IMG/VR virus record: IMGVR_UViG_2877982868_000014
Strand: one strand, 5' to 3'
DNA: 64,000 bases
DNA from: a virus
Taxonomy: Duplodnaviria; Heunggongvirae; Uroviricota; Caudoviricetes
In this document: positions 36,001-42,000 of the stretch, piece after piece
How positions within the stretch are numbered: the stretch's first letter is position 1
How the letters are laid out: the number at the start of each line of letters is the position of its first letter
Program-made: the position numbers

Positions 36001-39000
36001 AAACCTCGCCAGTTTAAATCCCGGTTTTCCCCGCCTGCGGCTCACCATCGCGGCAAGCCTGCGTTCCCACTCCTGACGTCCGGCGCGGATCTGAGAAAGG
36101 CTTTCCAGCGTCAGTTGCTGCCCGTTGAAGATGACAGACTTTCCCTCCAGTACGGCCATTTCCGCTTCACGGTACCGCTGTATCATTTCTCTGGCTTCTT
36201 CTGTGCTCACAACCAGCCTCCTGATGTTATCCATGGATTATCTTCCGCACGCTCCGTCCGCAGTTTTTTCTTCCGGCGACGGCGTTTTTCTGCCCCGGCC
36301 GTCAGTTCCGGGGATACCGTTTCACCAGAACGCTCCTGCGGGAAGACGAGCCACGTTTCCCGCTGTGCCCAGTCCGGTGCGGAGGGCCAGCGGATCTTTT
36401 CGTAACCATGCAGAACGGCAAGCGCATCCGCATAAACCAGCAGGTCAAACGCTTCGTTAGCGCCCCTGCCCGGTTTTCGCCATTTTCCGTCACTGCCGCG
36501 CTCTTCATAGGTCAGCTCATCGTAAAACCACCGCCCCAGCCAGTCGGGAAAGTGGATATAGTTCGGCCCTGGTGTGTCACGCCACAGGGCATTATTTACA
36601 CGATCCTTAAACGCATCCGTCTGAACCAGCCACAGCGCGACATCGCCACTGGCTCTGGCACGGCGGGCACTTCTGCCGGTATTATCCGGGAAGGTTCGGT
36701 TAATCAGCCTGTCACGGCGAAGTCCATCCCCCTTGAACAGAAACACCCTGTTGCCCAGTCCGTCACTCCGGCAACGACGCCAGAAACGATAGGCGTTATC
36801 TGTCACCCCGGCTTCCCCTCCCGTATCCACCGCCATGGCCATCAGACGCATGCGCACATCCGGATCAGAAGCCAGCGGCCATGTTTTATGGAACACATCC
36901 GTCAGCAACAAATCCCAGTCCTCCGGATATGCCGCCGGATCAACCGGCAGACTTTCACCGTTGGGACTGCAGCGCAGTGAATGCCGGATGTTGTAGCGAT
37001 CAACAATCCAGCGTTCCCCCTGCTCTCCGTATCCGGTGATCTGCACAACAAAACGGCGATTTTTACCGCCCTGTACGTCAACCGTTGCCTCAATAAAACG
37101 CACACCATCCGGCACAGATCGCCGGGGAAACGGCTCGGCACGCTGTTCAAGCAGTTCACTTTTACGCTGTTCCGTGGCTGAACGGGGCAGATAGGGTCGT
37201 CCGATATCGGTGTTCACCACCGCTTTCAGGGTCTCTTCACTGCCGGTTCGCTCATACTCTTCTTCTGCCGCCAGCAGTTTAAAAATCAGTTGTTCCCAGG
37301 TCTGAAACGCCGCAGCTGGCCCCTCCATCCAAGAAGAAGTAAATAAAAGGTAACTAAATGATTATAAGGTACTATTGAGTTATGCCCCCTACAACATAGT
37401 CCCAGATTTAGTACCTGCTTAAGCGATAAAAAAGCAAAAAAGGAAGCAATATTAATTATTGCCGCTATGCATGATCACAATGACAAATCAGAGGCGGAAT
37501 TCCGCTCTCGGAACTCACATATGAGAAACGATATTTCTTCCACCGATACCCTTTATTTGGGTATCGCAAGTAAGCCCCAAAATCTGGGTGTTGCTCTTAC
37601 TACCCAAACTACGGGTAGTTTCCGTAATTTCATGATCGAGTTGCAGATCTGCAACTCCCCCACCAGCCAACGCAATTTTGCGTTATCGTGAATATCAACA
37701 AGTTACCTCCGCAGCCGTTCCGGCGTCTTCCACTGGTAAGTATTTTTCGCGCTCTCCCTCCGTTGTTGAGAACGGCGACGGTATGCCAGCAACTCAAGGA
37801 CTCTGGTTCGTATATTGCGCATATCCACATCATTAAGCTGGATACCATCACGGCGCATCACCTCCACCACTACACGCACATAATTATCTGCGGTCATGCT
37901 GTCCGGCTGCGTGGCCTGTTCGTCAACCTGCTGGCTGATTCCGGCGACGCGGCGGATTAATCCCAGTATTTCGGCTTCTGTCATTGTGCCCCCATCGCGC
38001 TGGTGAAGAAAACAAGCTCAGATTTTTTGTAAAGAATCTGTCACGCTAAAAGATGTCGAACAAAAAACAACCTTCTTCATCATCTTTTTTACATCAAAAT
38101 AATTAAAAACAATCACTTACGCACATGATGATGATGACGATAAAATCAAAAAAATGCGCTTCTTTCCGCGCCGCCCGCCCCGTGTTCAGGCCCACCCCAC
38201 CAGGAGGACCCGCAAAAAAGGCGGCTGGTGCCGCCTTGTTGTCATAGTGAATCTGTCCCGCCTGATTTGACCATACCGCGATAATCCAGAGCTGCCACAC
38301 CTGCATCAATACGGACTTTCCAGGCCACGCCGTCAACGATAAAACCTTCCTGCTGTTCAAGGTAAGGCTCGTCACTGCCATCAAGATAAGCCACCTCGAT
38401 TGTGTCCGTTCCCTGTGCGGAAAGCATGTACCATTGTTTTTCGCTGATATCATCAAGGCGGGGATCGACGATGATATCAAGTAGCTTGTGATACGGGTTA
38501 AAGATCCCGCTGTTTTTATCAGCCCCGAAAGGTGCGGTTGAGTTAATCATCTGCAACGCGCGATCTTCCAGTGCTGCCGGAACTAAAAGGAATTTAGGCG
38601 CAATATTCAGCACTTCGCCATTTTTGTCCTTCTGTGTGCGCATCAGGTGACGTGCTGCACTAAGTCCCGGTGTTGTCAGTCCTGCTTCAATCAGGTTGCT
38701 GTGTTTTTTGTCAAACAGCGCTATTCCGTCAGAAAGTTTTACGTTGCCTGTAAGCACCAGATTAACCAGATTTCCCACCGTTCTTGATGCAGCACGGCCC
38801 ATAGCCATTGGCACCGTTGATAACTGATCAAGGTCATCATTGATTATCGCCTGGCGGGTAATGCTGAAAATATTCCCGTAAGTAGCCAGCGCGATGGGTT
38901 CACCGCGATCGCTGGTGGTGATGTATTTATATTCTGCCCCTTCCGGCACTTTGTTTAACGTTGAGAAGCCATTCATACCAACGCGGCGGGCTTCCCGGAA

Positions 39001-42000
39001 GTTTGAAAGGGAACCTTTTTTCGTCCACTGGCGGAATGTTTCGCCGCTGTGCTCCCAGCCTGCAAGCACTGATTTTTCAGCGCCACCAGCAAGAATATCG
39101 GTAAAATCGCTGCTGCTGTGGGTGAATGCCGCGTTTACTATCTGCGAGCGTGTGCCGTAGCTGCCCGTGCTTATACCACGATGGGTTAATGATGCCTGTG
39201 CCATATCGAAAAGGCTCATCATGGCGTAAGGATTACCGCGTTCGGCCCGTTCGTGACCAAGACGCGCATTAAGCCCCTGGCGCATTGCATCGCCGGTTAT
39301 GTTGCCGTTATCCGTGTACGCGTAGTAAAGATTTGCGGGGGTGGTTTTGTTTGTTGGCGTTGATTCTTTACCCATAGCGAGTAAAAGGCGTTCGCGTGCA
39401 TTCTCAACGCTACATTCTGAATCAGCAAGACAACTTATAGCCAGGTCGTTATATCTTCCGTTGAACGTGCCAAACAATTCACGGATGCCGTTAAGTCGTT
39501 CCTGTTCGCCACTGGTAGTTTTCTGGCTGATCATGCTTTTAATTTTTTCCGGCATATTTGAAAAATCTCCGATTCGTTTTGATTCAATTCGGGCCATTGC
39601 TGTAATCGCGGCTATAACCTCATCTGCGAAGCCGTTAGCCTTACACTCATTGCCATCCATCCAGGTTTCCGCCTCCATCATGGCGGTGATTTCCTGTTTG
39701 CTCCTGCCCGTTCTTCCGGCGTAGGTTTCCGCCATCGTGTCGCCCAGCTTGTCCATCAGGTCAGCAAAGCGGCGAACGTCGCCCGACACTCCGGCAGTAA
39801 CACCACGGGGGGCATGTATCATCATCATCGCGTTTTCAGGCATAACGATGTGATCGCCACACATGGCAATAAACGAGGCCATAGAAGCCGCCATGCCTTC
39901 AATGTGTACAATTTTCTTTGCCGGATGATTTTTCAGGGCGTTATAGATAGCCAGCCCTTCAAAGATGTCGCCACCAGGTGAATGGATGCGAAGATGGATT
40001 TCAGACACATTACCGCACGCGTTGATCTCGTCAGTAAGTGCCGATGCCTTTACACCGTACCCGCCGATCTCGTCATAAATGCGCACATGTACAACATCTG
40101 CCATAGCCTTAATGGAAAACCATGTTTTCATAGCCAGGCTCCTAACGTTGCCCTGTACCAGTATTCAACCGCGCTGCGTGTGATTTGTCCTTTCGTGGGC
40201 ACTGGCATACCCGGGTGATTATCTTTGATGAACTGCTGATAGCGTTCGATCTTCTCCATAGTTCCGGCGTCTATGTGTACCGTGGCACTTTTATCCGGCT
40301 TTCTGGTGTTGTTCTCTGGCATAAATCCGCCTCCGTTTTGATTAACGGGCATCATTATTGATCGATAAAAGTAATAGATAAATCATTTTCTACCTGAAAA
40401 TCAGATTATGTTTTTTCTGATTATTCTCAGAAAGGCAAAGTTATTGACGCATTTTTGCCATTGAAGCAGTATTAAGACTCGTCATCCTGGCGATAAAAAC
40501 TCCTTTGTCGTGTAAAAGCGCCTCCGGTAACAGCAATCGGGGGCGCTTTTTTTGCGCCTGTTTTTTGTAAATGTTTTCGGGAACGTTCCGGTGATGAACA
40601 AAAAACAACCTGATTCGACACTAAAAATTTTTATTTCTCAACATATCAATAGCTTATAGTGGTGGTGATGGTGCCATAAAAATCAAAAAATGCGCCTTTT
40701 TCCGCGCCCCTCCGCCCCGTGGACAGGCCACCCCCACCAGGAGTACCTACAAAAAAGCCGGATTTCTCCGGCTTCTGTCACTCGTTGCTTAAAACGGTAT
40801 GTTATCCCCGTACGGATCATCATTCCCCGCCTGTTGTTTTGCCCTGTTCAGTGCGTCAGTAGCCTGCCCCTGCTGGCCTTTTTTGCCGCCCGGTCGCGCC
40901 GTTCTCGCACTGATTACGCTGTCTGCGATAACCTGCCAGCCCTGCCGCGTTTCGCCGTTCTGGCCTGTCCACTGGCTTACCTGCATGTTACCCGCCACGC
41001 TCACCAGCTCGCCTTTGCGGTGTTTTGCCAGTGCGTCGGCCTGTCTGCCAAACGCCAGGACGGATAACCACATCGTAGCCGTTCCGTCATCTGCCTGGCT
41101 GCACGGCAGGGGGACAGCCATACTCGCCATCGTCATTTGTGTGCCCTTGCTGGTGGTCTTTAACTGTGGGTCAGCCACCAGCCGCCCGTAAGCCGCTATC
41201 TGTGCTGTCATGATTCCACCTCTCCGGTTTTAACGTTGATGGTTGTTACCTGTTCCGCTTCGGCAATCTCCCGTTCTGTCAGCGTGGCAAAGTTTGCAGC
41301 TGCCGTTGTCATGAATGCGCTAACCAGTTCGGGATGTGCTTTCGCATATCCTTCCCCGGCGTTGCGGTCGATGATTTTTATCGACACCCTTAACCAGTGT
41401 TCCGTCAAATCAAGGGCGTGCGATTGTGATTTTTTTGTGTGCTTCGCTGTCATAGGCTTTATCTCACAGCAGTAAATTAAAATTTTTGCGTTTCAACCCT
41501 TCACCTGTTCACCTTTTGATATTTTATCTTTTAATTCATAATGTTAAGGGGTGAACAGTTTCACAAAAACTATTCACCAACTGTTCACCACTGTTCACCC
41601 TTGAAGCTCAATAAACAATCAAAAAGGTGAACAGTGAATAGTTTGGTGAACAGTTCATAAATAACTGTTCACCATATAATATACTGATATAAAAGATATT
41701 TATGACAGGGTGAACAGTGATGAACAGTTATTCCATAAGTTTAATTTTTGCCATCGTCATTTGTGACCGATGCACATGAGGGCATCCAGTCTTCTGAATC
41801 CTCTGTCAGTATCACGTTTGAACGCAAGCCATGCTTCGTTTTCCGTTTCATATACTCCCTGCCGTATTCCGCCATTGCCCCTGGCATATCCTTACCGAAG
41901 CGTGTCAGTGTTACGGGCTTACCGAATCCGTGTGCCCTCATATACGCCAGATAGGCGTGATAGAGATACCTGCGCGGGCTGAACGGAATAATTTCAGCAT

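Follow-up and report, generated by a model that had tools for sequence, protein, structure and literature searches.

Phage-inducible chromosomal islands (PICIs) embedded in their helper prophages are known from a survey (Tommasini, Mageeney & Williams 2023, PMC10111431) in which 491 such islands occupied 14 sites spread over nine lambda-cognate late genes and had the same orientation as the late operon. When the founder of these helper-embedded PICIs (HE-PICIs), 11capE, is induced, the composite excises and replicates and the satellite then excises (PMC10111431). The late zones of PICIs are described as dynamic regions that capture prophage late genes, among the late genes of Gram-negative PICIs the capsid gene is found most often (21 of 29 references), and a CLP_protease gene is noted in PICIs at tRNA-Ile2 (PMC10111431); SatelliteFinder lists a capsid-like gene among the core components of PICIs (PMC10085698). 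The model Gram-negative cos PICI is EcCICFT073 (Fillol-Salom 2018, 2019). Removal of either its capsid homologue (c1499) or its decoration gene (c1500) left transfer and interference unchanged, and the packaged DNA was all phage-sized (PMC6092414); this island has two cos sites, the purpose of which is unexplained (PMC6739421). Here we analyse a 64,000-nucleotide stretch of DNA (the window; IMG/VR record IMGVR_UViG_2877982868_000014), which corresponds to positions 3343011-3407010 of the Escherichia coli 2010C-3347 chromosome (NZ_CP034806.1) and in which an island nested in a Stx1 prophage carries its own gene for a protease-capsid fusion protein.

We consider it highly probable that this open reading frame (ORF) represents the capsid gene in the 'late zone' of a 10.4-kb PICI of the Gram-negative type, helper-embedded in the large-terminase gene (terL) of an Sp15-type Stx1a prophage, and that the island would be mobilized by the route set out below. 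The overall picture is mostly unchanged, as nested satellites in prophage late genes and PICI capsid paralogues have both already been published. The integrase and its site in a gpA-type terL appear to be new: neither this integrase lineage nor this terminase site was found in the 2023 survey (PMC10111431), both widen the range of helper-embedded satellites, and together they look like a second, independent route to helper-embedding. The satellite-specific, short-linker lineage of the capsid gene is a further modest addition.

The protease-capsid fusion gene and its island

The ORF (38242-40131, minus strand, stop codon included) is intact, starts with ATG and encodes 629 amino acids (aa). An earlier note on this DNA had read its product as a prohead protease fused to a major capsid domain, and profile searches agree: Pfam places CLP_protease at residues 42-174 (E 5.6e-33) and Phage_capsid_4 at residues 331-623 (E 1.8e-54), and the full-length protein matches NF045540 of NCBIfam (scaf_prot_MCP1, 'ClpP-like prohead protease/major capsid protein fusion protein') with 890.6 bits, against a curated cut-off of 475 bits. 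A scaffold-like linker joins the two domains, and the ClpP-type catalytic motifs are present (serine in AASMA, S83; histidine in MMIH, H106); the protease appears catalytically competent.

The host is a lambdoid Stx1a prophage of the O157 Sp15/VT1-Sakai type that adjoins btsR/yehV and has all its late genes on the minus strand. Its own fusion gene is split, as the earlier note had recognized, by an insertion sequence (IS) of 1310 bp, IS1203/IS629 (32322-33631, plus strand), with a 3-bp CCC target duplication. The IS separates a protease and linker part (33632-34506, minus strand, ending ...LLNEMG) from a major capsid part (31214-32321, minus strand, beginning GKESSPTNK...) and cuts precisely at the domain junction, between MG and GKES; its removal in silico regains a 659-aa ORF. 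The IS sits at the identical position in Sakai Sp15 and VT1-Sakai. The resulting pair, a protease and linker ORF with a separate capsid ORF, recalls phages with separate protease and capsid genes. Judged from the sequence, the helper is likely capsid-defective but need not be 'capsid-null', because the IS leaves a GTG-initiated 346-aa ORF (31214-32254) that spans the entire prophage capsid domain.

By BLASTP, the satellite protein aligns with both helper pieces. The alignment to the protease piece covers 289 aa at 45% identity (E 2e-84) and has a gap of 35 aa in the linker, and that to the capsid piece covers 370 aa at 57% (E 4e-145); over the whole length, the satellite and prophage fusion proteins are 54.8% identical. 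The capsid domains are thus homologous and the two copies clearly divergent, as had been claimed, and the linker strings quoted in support of that claim are exact. One peptide that differs between the copies reads GNPYAMMSLFDMAQASLTHR in the 629-aa protein and DNAYNGMTLR in the 659-aa protein. A search of PDB sequences with the satellite protein returned ClpP matches only, with no solved relative of the capsid half. An AlphaFold2 model from a 10-row alignment reached a pLDDT of about 85-95 in the protease domain and moderate values in the linker helices; the capsid half stayed below 50, because the available homologues are either close (at least 62% identity) or fragments from the window, and this unusable part of the model lends no structural support to any capsid role.

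The gene lies in an island of 10,436 bp (37338-47773) that interrupts the gpA-type terL of the Stx1 prophage, with the N-terminal fragment (gpA-type) at 47774-48778 and the C-terminal fragment (GpA_nuclease) at 36207-37337, both on the minus strand. A copy of the att core TTGGATG, read on the minus strand, stands at the integrase-side junction (47774-47780) and another at the far junction (37326-37332), where homology to the uninterrupted Sp15 terL stops. Joining the fragments through one core copy precisely restores a terL of 2124 nt and 707 aa that is 1 nt off Sakai ECs_2963, has the attB junction ...CATTTTGGATGGAGGGGCC... and places the insertion at about codon 336. The island falls within the size range of Gram-negative PICIs (about 10-20 kb) and measures about 1/4.6 of Sp15 (47,879 bp). 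Like HE-PICIs, it sits within a prophage late gene, and its integrase, helix-turn-helix (HTH), primase, SSB and capsid genes are co-oriented with the minus-strand late operon that it interrupts (Q, stx1, lysis, terS, terL and head/tail genes).

The island genes, all on the minus strand, follow the order int, HTH, Bro-N, Icd-like, DUF4222, D5 primase, iterons, 81-aa ORF, SSB, small ORF, ClpP-MCP (the fusion with the major capsid protein, MCP) and 93-aa ORF. The integrase is a tyrosine recombinase with Arm-DNA-bind_3 and Phage_integrase domains (46371-47609; Pfam), and the adjoining HTH gene (46154-46357) encodes a 67-aa protein that is AlpA/excisionase-like by weak matches. A Bro-N domain protein (45513-46094; PHROGs, Pfam) corresponds to the 'Bro zone' of PICIs. 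The primase (41741-43555; Pfam, NCBIfam) is of the P4 family with D5_N, DUF5906 and Pox_D5 domains. Directly downstream of it, iterons GGTGAACAGT / AACTGTTCACCA (41550-41723, strand unassigned) mark a putative replication origin, the position of which would fit the ori of Gram-negative PICIs (PMC10111431, PMC6092414). The SSB gene (40789-41211; Pfam SSB, E 3.7e-16) is followed by the small ORF (40128-40322; phrog_4934), annotated with 64 aa or 75 aa if read from an ATG at 40355; its stop overlaps the start of the capsid gene (ATGA), and it occupies the same position upstream of the capsid gene in loci L003, L007, L011 and L015. The 93-aa ORF at the far island end (37703-37984; phrog_1561) is kept in all related islands.

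Portal, terminase, connector/adaptor, HNH, tail and lysis genes are absent from 37338-47773, on which the PGAP annotation, PHROGs and Pfam agree. The earlier description therefore holds: this is an element of satellite type, nested in the prophage, equipped with an intact but divergent protease-capsid paralogue and free of portal, terminase and tail genes. Other virion genes are absent as well. Neither the 93-aa nor the 75-aa ORF resembles the prophage TerS, the satellite TerS of locus L005 or the portal, and neither has a Pfam/NCBIfam match. The sole island ORF the size of Rpp is the SSB, and PHROGs and Pfam give no Rpp-sized candidate. An Rfam scan of the island found no P4-type immunity RNAs (C4/isrK) at E <= 0.1, and a promoter/terminator scan found nothing beyond shuffled expectation.

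Two cos-like sites lie on the minus strand of the island. The first (38017-38217), directly downstream of the capsid gene and a hairpin with a T-run, matches the prophage cos region (49288-49489, minus strand) over 203 bp with 85% identity; that region is upstream of the DUF1441-type small-terminase gene (48775-49251). The second (40663-40774), upstream of the small ORF/capsid pair, is partial and more divergent (83% identity to the prophage cos). With integration genes, replication genes and a helper-type cos, the element has the needs of a cos-packaged satellite. The direct cos-like repeats (38017-38237 and 40596-40774; 71% identical to each other) flank a 2.5-kb module of small ORF and capsid gene, and each is preceded by a hairpin with a T-run and contains a cosN-like core CACGGGGCGG...GGCGCGGAAA; the pairing could equally record how the capsid module was acquired.

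By analogy with the HE-PICI and EcCICFT073 models, SOS induction would be followed by late prophage transcription through terS and the N-terminal terL fragment into the island. The integrase and HTH protein would then excise the island and so restore terL, and the island would replicate from its own primase and origin. Island concatemers would be cut at cos by the prophage-type terminase and packaged with helper portal, connectors and tails, with four island copies (41.7 kb) filling a full-size head as reported for EcCICFT073. Since the 58-kb composite would be too long for one head, excision is presumably obligatory. In this scheme, and least certainly of all its parts, the satellite capsid protein would be an accessory that modulates or secures the supply of heads and would not be needed for transfer. 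One consequence for island-bearing Stx1 prophages is that the toxin phage can make terminase only once the island has excised. The stx1A/stx1B genes (55058-56284) are upstream of the interrupted terminase gene in the same late transcription unit; toxin expression should thus be independent of island excision and production of Stx1 phage particles dependent on it.

Several points weigh against the identification and route proposed here. We infer induction, excision, packaging and incorporation of the satellite protein by analogy with described systems, and an assembly role may have no measurable consequence, given that the only E. coli PICI capsid homologue tested, c1499 of EcCICFT073 (of the lambda-E type, not the fusion type), showed no detectable deletion phenotype (PMC6092414). 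The host prophage alone may be unable to act as a helper, because its capsid gene is split. The HTH protein matches phrog_66 (excisionase/regulator; E 9e-7); its Pfam match to HTH_17 (E 0.004) is below the cut-off, and Phage_AlpA is not matched. The integrase shares just 25% identity (86 bits) with that of 11capE, which places it outside the published HE-PICI clade, as the 2023 survey collected integrases at 400 bits or more to 11capE Int and reported a single clade (PMC10111431). Neither 'GpA' nor the core 'ttggatg' appears in the att-site supplements of that survey, where line wrapping could hide the core. Finally, several accessory genes are pseudogenes, so the island in the window may be partly decayed.

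In the accessory zone concerned (43799-45016), 19 bp are perfectly duplicated in tandem (CGCTCAACAATGCGCCCGC x2, 44146-44183) and ORFs are frameshifted or partial. The Icd-like gene has an internal stop in the window island, and the matching accessory genes are intact in O145:H28 strain 12E115 (L009). Outside the island, the protease half of the prophage gene contains an exact 12-bp block, ATGATGATCCAT (34180-34191, minus strand), that is the attB identity block of the C:CLP_protease:110 HE-PICI group (PMC10111431). The helper gene is therefore a potential target of a second satellite family; the satellite copy, which reads ATGATGATACAT at 39811-39834 and has one mismatch to the block, is slightly off-target. 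Elsewhere in the window, the end of a Mu-like prophage (1-6943; Gam, AAA ATPase, Mu transposase and repressor-like HTH genes) adjoins truncated yeh genes, and a second IS1203 copy truncates yehQ (10937-12150). The window thus holds three nested or adjacent layers of mobile elements besides the Stx1 prophage.

Distribution and lineage of the satellite capsid gene

Among 5426 complete E. coli genomes, 82 contain int together with the terL junction, with identities of 89.5-100%. The combination spans Stx1 prophages of O157, O111, O145, O121 and O45 as well as different lambdoid prophages, and int was never without a terL flank in 40 records sampled down the ranking. This breadth of serotypes and prophages, with int always beside terL, argues against a stray secondary integration.

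Comparison of the capsid genes suggests that the satellite copy has a long history of its own. Satellite and helper copies have a synonymous divergence (dS) above 2 and an identity of 54-55%, which rules out capture of the gene from the present helper. No entry among 50,697 phage records is closer to the satellite protein than 51.7% identity, and the best-matching phages (Stx2 phages, CP-1639, VT1-Sakai, mEp460 and cdtI) all have a 652-680-aa form. In the protein database the satellite versions form two tight groups, one of 628/629 aa (90-100% identity) and one of 637/638 aa (62-63%), with none between them among 120 listed matches. Alignment reveals that both satellite types lack a 30-35-aa Pro/Ala-rich linker segment present in every prophage version and share many substitutions relative to the prophage consensus.

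All six satellite alleles examined are intact, as are the full-length cluster representatives P0001 (573 member sequences) and P0019 (1046). The ratio of nonsynonymous to synonymous divergence (dN/dS) is 0.08-0.37 in pairwise comparisons among 629-aa alleles, 0.17 between the 629-aa type and the 637-aa type from another terL-embedded island, and 0.17-0.19 for helper copies. In every context examined, both satellite types reside in a ~10-kb island with the layout int/(AlpA/HTH)/DUF4222/primase/SSB/small ORF/ClpP-MCP/(DUF1441)/93-aa ORF, found in terL, at tRNA-Ile or at cspD-clpS. The four places listed for the 637/638-aa type are all chromosomal sites with a comparable island of ~10 kb. On this sequence evidence, the satellite capsid gene belongs to an old, satellite-specific lineage kept by purifying selection and is neither a fresh capture nor a relic.

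A sister island embedded in terL (L005 7724-9250, NZ_OW968288.1) has the 637-aa capsid type, a tail-protein fragment and a tail-assembly gene, together with a DUF1441 small-terminase homologue that is 67% identical to the host prophage TerS. This island exemplifies a dynamic 'late zone' and a satellite-specific TerS.

Possible roles of the satellite capsid protein

The active-site motifs, linker, capsid parts and ...MGKES... junction are all kept, and this favours a genuine shell subunit. We tentatively prefer, while regarding it as possible and not as probable, a reading in which the satellite protein processes itself and joins portal-nucleated assembly alongside or instead of helper subunits, as a non-essential accessory.

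The earlier note had speculated that the subunit could itself set capsid size. Such redirection, on the pattern of the SaPIbov5 protein Ccm, could proceed through co-assembly with helper subunits (for example, in pentamers) or through shells built by the satellite protein alone on the helper portal, and the small heads would fit one or two island genomes and exclude the ~48-kb phage. We judge this rather unlikely. Ccm, which has a shorter N-terminal delta/scaffold domain than its helper counterpart (87 vs 128 aa), occupies pentamers and forces T=4 shells (PMC8569155), and PmCI172 combines small heads with an encoded capsid homologue (PMC6092414). The shortened linker of the satellite versions, the purifying selection on the gene and the small size of the island (10,436 bp, against 47,879 bp for Sp15) are consistent with a similar role. 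However, EcCICFT073 packaged only phage-sized DNA and was unaffected by deletion of its capsid homologue (PMC6092414), the missing Pro/Ala-rich segment is probably flexible and is no obvious size determinant, and the unusable AlphaFold capsid half offers the idea no structural support.

The second suggestion of the earlier note, that the gene serves to complement a capsid-defective helper, can be set against the history of the IS. In a broader form, the fusion would be a one-gene shell kit (protease, scaffold and capsid) that insures the island against a defective, repressed or mismatched helper capsid and would here rescue the IS-split Sp15. The fusion does contain all that a shell needs except the portal, and defective O157 prophages have been mobilized with help from other prophages (PMC2669165). 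In addition, the helper capsid gene is independently damaged in three of ten sampled terL-embedded composites, by the IS in the window, an internal stop (L006 3408-5435) and a frameshift (L007 3357-5335). These ten are few and partly clonal, and the figure has no proper baseline given the decay of prophages in Shiga toxin-producing E. coli (STEC); the damage could reflect such decay, assembly error or relaxed selection beside a satellite copy.

The distribution of the IS speaks against this purpose. A query spanning the IS end, protease piece, portal, W, terL C-terminal fragment and island end was covered in full, with both IS and island, in only two listed genomes (2010C-3347 and O157:H7 ECP19-198), whereas the IS-split gene occurs with an uninterrupted terL (homology stops at 37332) in 28 of the 60 top-ranked records, Sakai, EDL933 and Xuzhou21 among them. 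The IS-split prophage is thus widespread without the island, from which it follows that the IS is older and the island arrived later; selection of the IS lesion because of the island is rejected on the same grounds. The identical satellite protein, WP_000860403.1, stands beside intact 659-aa helper genes in O145:H28 12E115 and in cattle strain 13E0725, and the helper gene is intact in the remaining seven of the ten composites (L005, L008, L009, L010 and L015-L017). Helper-type capsid genes occur in 2032 of the 5426 genomes, in up to six places per genome, so other resident prophages can supply capsid. At 55% identity, the fit of the satellite protein to helper portal and cement protein is uncertain, and Ccm was unable to complement a capsid deletion (PMC8569155). 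We therefore disfavour complementation as the purpose of the gene and hold the insurance reading as a whole to be doubtful. Incidental complementation may still take place in 2010C-3347 but is not the reason the gene exists; that the helper copy is IS-broken in this strain is an accident of how the lineage evolved.

Improbable, in our estimation, is a role in interference, in which the satellite subunit would poison helper heads by dominant-negative co-assembly and lower phage yield to the gain of satellite or host. Classical PICIs do interfere strongly with their helpers (PMC6092414), and it is plausible that helper capsomers could take in a paralogue of 55% identity. Nevertheless, retention of the protease motifs and purifying selection over the full length exceed what a poison needs, and interference by EcCICFT073 maps to Rpp and not to the capsid homologue (PMC6092414, PMC6739421).

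That the gene is a functionless relic of recent late-gene capture from a helper prophage is very improbable. The capture of prophage late genes by PICI late zones (PMC10111431) and the tail-gene fragments beside the capsid gene of the L005 variant lend this reading some plausibility; the dS above 2 and the lack of a close phage relative (none above 51.7% identity) instead make any capture ancient, and the intactness of all six alleles and the cluster representatives, at a dN/dS of about 0.17, largely refutes it. Recombination between tandem prophages, which might explain two paralogous head genes within 8 kb and would make the element a fragment of a second lambdoid prophage, is refuted by the junction analysis (a 7-bp core at both ends and exact terL restoration) and runs counter to the element's own integrase, primase and predicted ori, to the same island in different prophages and serotypes and to the same capsid module in chromosomal islands.

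Returning to the satellite protein as a shell subunit, a bolder version of the idea, for which we see only a small chance, is that the short-linker lineage (629- and 637-aa types) is a one-gene 'shell kit'. Classical PICIs would use it to assemble shells of their own, which may be smaller, around a portal taken from the helper, as a functional intermediate between PICIs that steal capsids and capsid-forming PICIs (cf-PICIs). Such a kit could keep capsid-defective Stx prophages or satellites mobile in the pool of defective STEC prophages. On this view, too, helper-embedding would have arisen a second time, with an unrelated integrase that targets gpA-type terminase genes. An old, satellite-specific, selected lineage with a short linker in any case places some constraint on why most Gram-negative PICIs keep a capsid gene. 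Strain 2010C-3347, with its split helper gene, and strain 12E115, with the same island beside an intact one, make a natural comparison on the question of whether the satellite protein enters particles.

Comparison with known satellites and phages

The closest described system is 11capE. Like the window island, it is a ~10-11-kb island that lies inside, and points the same way as, a lambdoid prophage's late gene; the two share the order int, HTH, YlcI/YnfO, Icd-like, DUF4222, primase, 81-aa ORF, SSB and capsid gene, their primases are 82% identical, and each has a divergent paralogue of its helper's own type of capsid gene together with a helper-like copy of cos. They differ in the integrase, as described above, and in the capsid gene, which is a ClpP-MCP fusion without a decoration gene in the window and lambda E plus D in 11capE. 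The A-gene sites of the 2023 survey are in Terminase_1-family genes (A_Terminase_1_132 and _246; the main text also gives :245; PMC10111431). The window integrase is likewise distant from a chromosomal PICI integrase (22% identity).

Similarities to EcCICFT073 extend to the int-alpA-pri/ori layout (in which the window HTH gene is a candidate alpA), two cos sites, a late-region capsid homologue and lambdoid helpers (PMC6092414, PMC6739421). EcCICFT073 is chromosomal, however, and has a lambda-E-type capsid gene with a decoration gene as well as Rpp (144-153 aa), which retargets TerS, whereas the window island is embedded in a prophage and its first cos site resembles the helper cos through the cosB side. 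More broadly, the window element has the features of Gram-negative PICIs in its own primase with a predicted ori directly downstream, its helper-type cos and its lack of lysis, tail and most head genes.

The late module of small ORF, ClpP-MCP fusion and 93-aa ORF is shared with PICIs at tRNA-Ile2 and cspD-clpS (L003, L011-L014), which have other integrases and chromosomal sites. The L003 fusion protein is 98.7% identical to the window satellite copy, and the 637-aa type is 64% identical. Islands with the 637-aa type add a DUF1441 TerS-like gene, 67% identical to a helper TerS, that the window island lacks.

SaPIbov5 Ccm (Carpena 2016; Hawkins 2021, PMC8569155) is also a satellite paralogue of the helper major capsid protein with a shorter N-terminal scaffold/delta part, carried by a cos-packaged satellite without portal or terminase. 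It comes from a Gram-positive system, is 24% identical to the helper capsid protein, lacks a protease domain and has demonstrated size redirection, whereas the window gene is known from sequence. The cf-PICIs (EcCIEDL933; Alqurainy 2023, bioRxiv 10.1101/2022.09.08.507074) resemble the window island in their int/alpA/primase backbone type (again with only a candidate alpA in the window) and in having their own capsid and protease functions. With genes for portal, head-tail connectors, HNH, TerS and TerL besides, they assemble complete satellite heads; the window island, with the protease-capsid gene only and none of portal, adaptor/connector, TerL, TerS or HNH in 37338-47773, is not a cf-PICI. 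Assignment as a P4-like satellite was also rejected: the island shares a P4-family primase domain and a P4-like integrase fold, but PHROGs and Pfam give no Sid/Psu/Delta matches, C4/isrK RNA is absent from the Rfam scan and the cos is lambdoid.

Among phages, the same three-part architecture and the same family (NF045540) are found in mEp460, cdtI, the Stx2 phages and VT1-Sakai. The proteins of these fusion-gene phages have 652-680 aa, contain the Pro/Ala-rich linker and are at most 51.7% identical to the version that the satellites carry.

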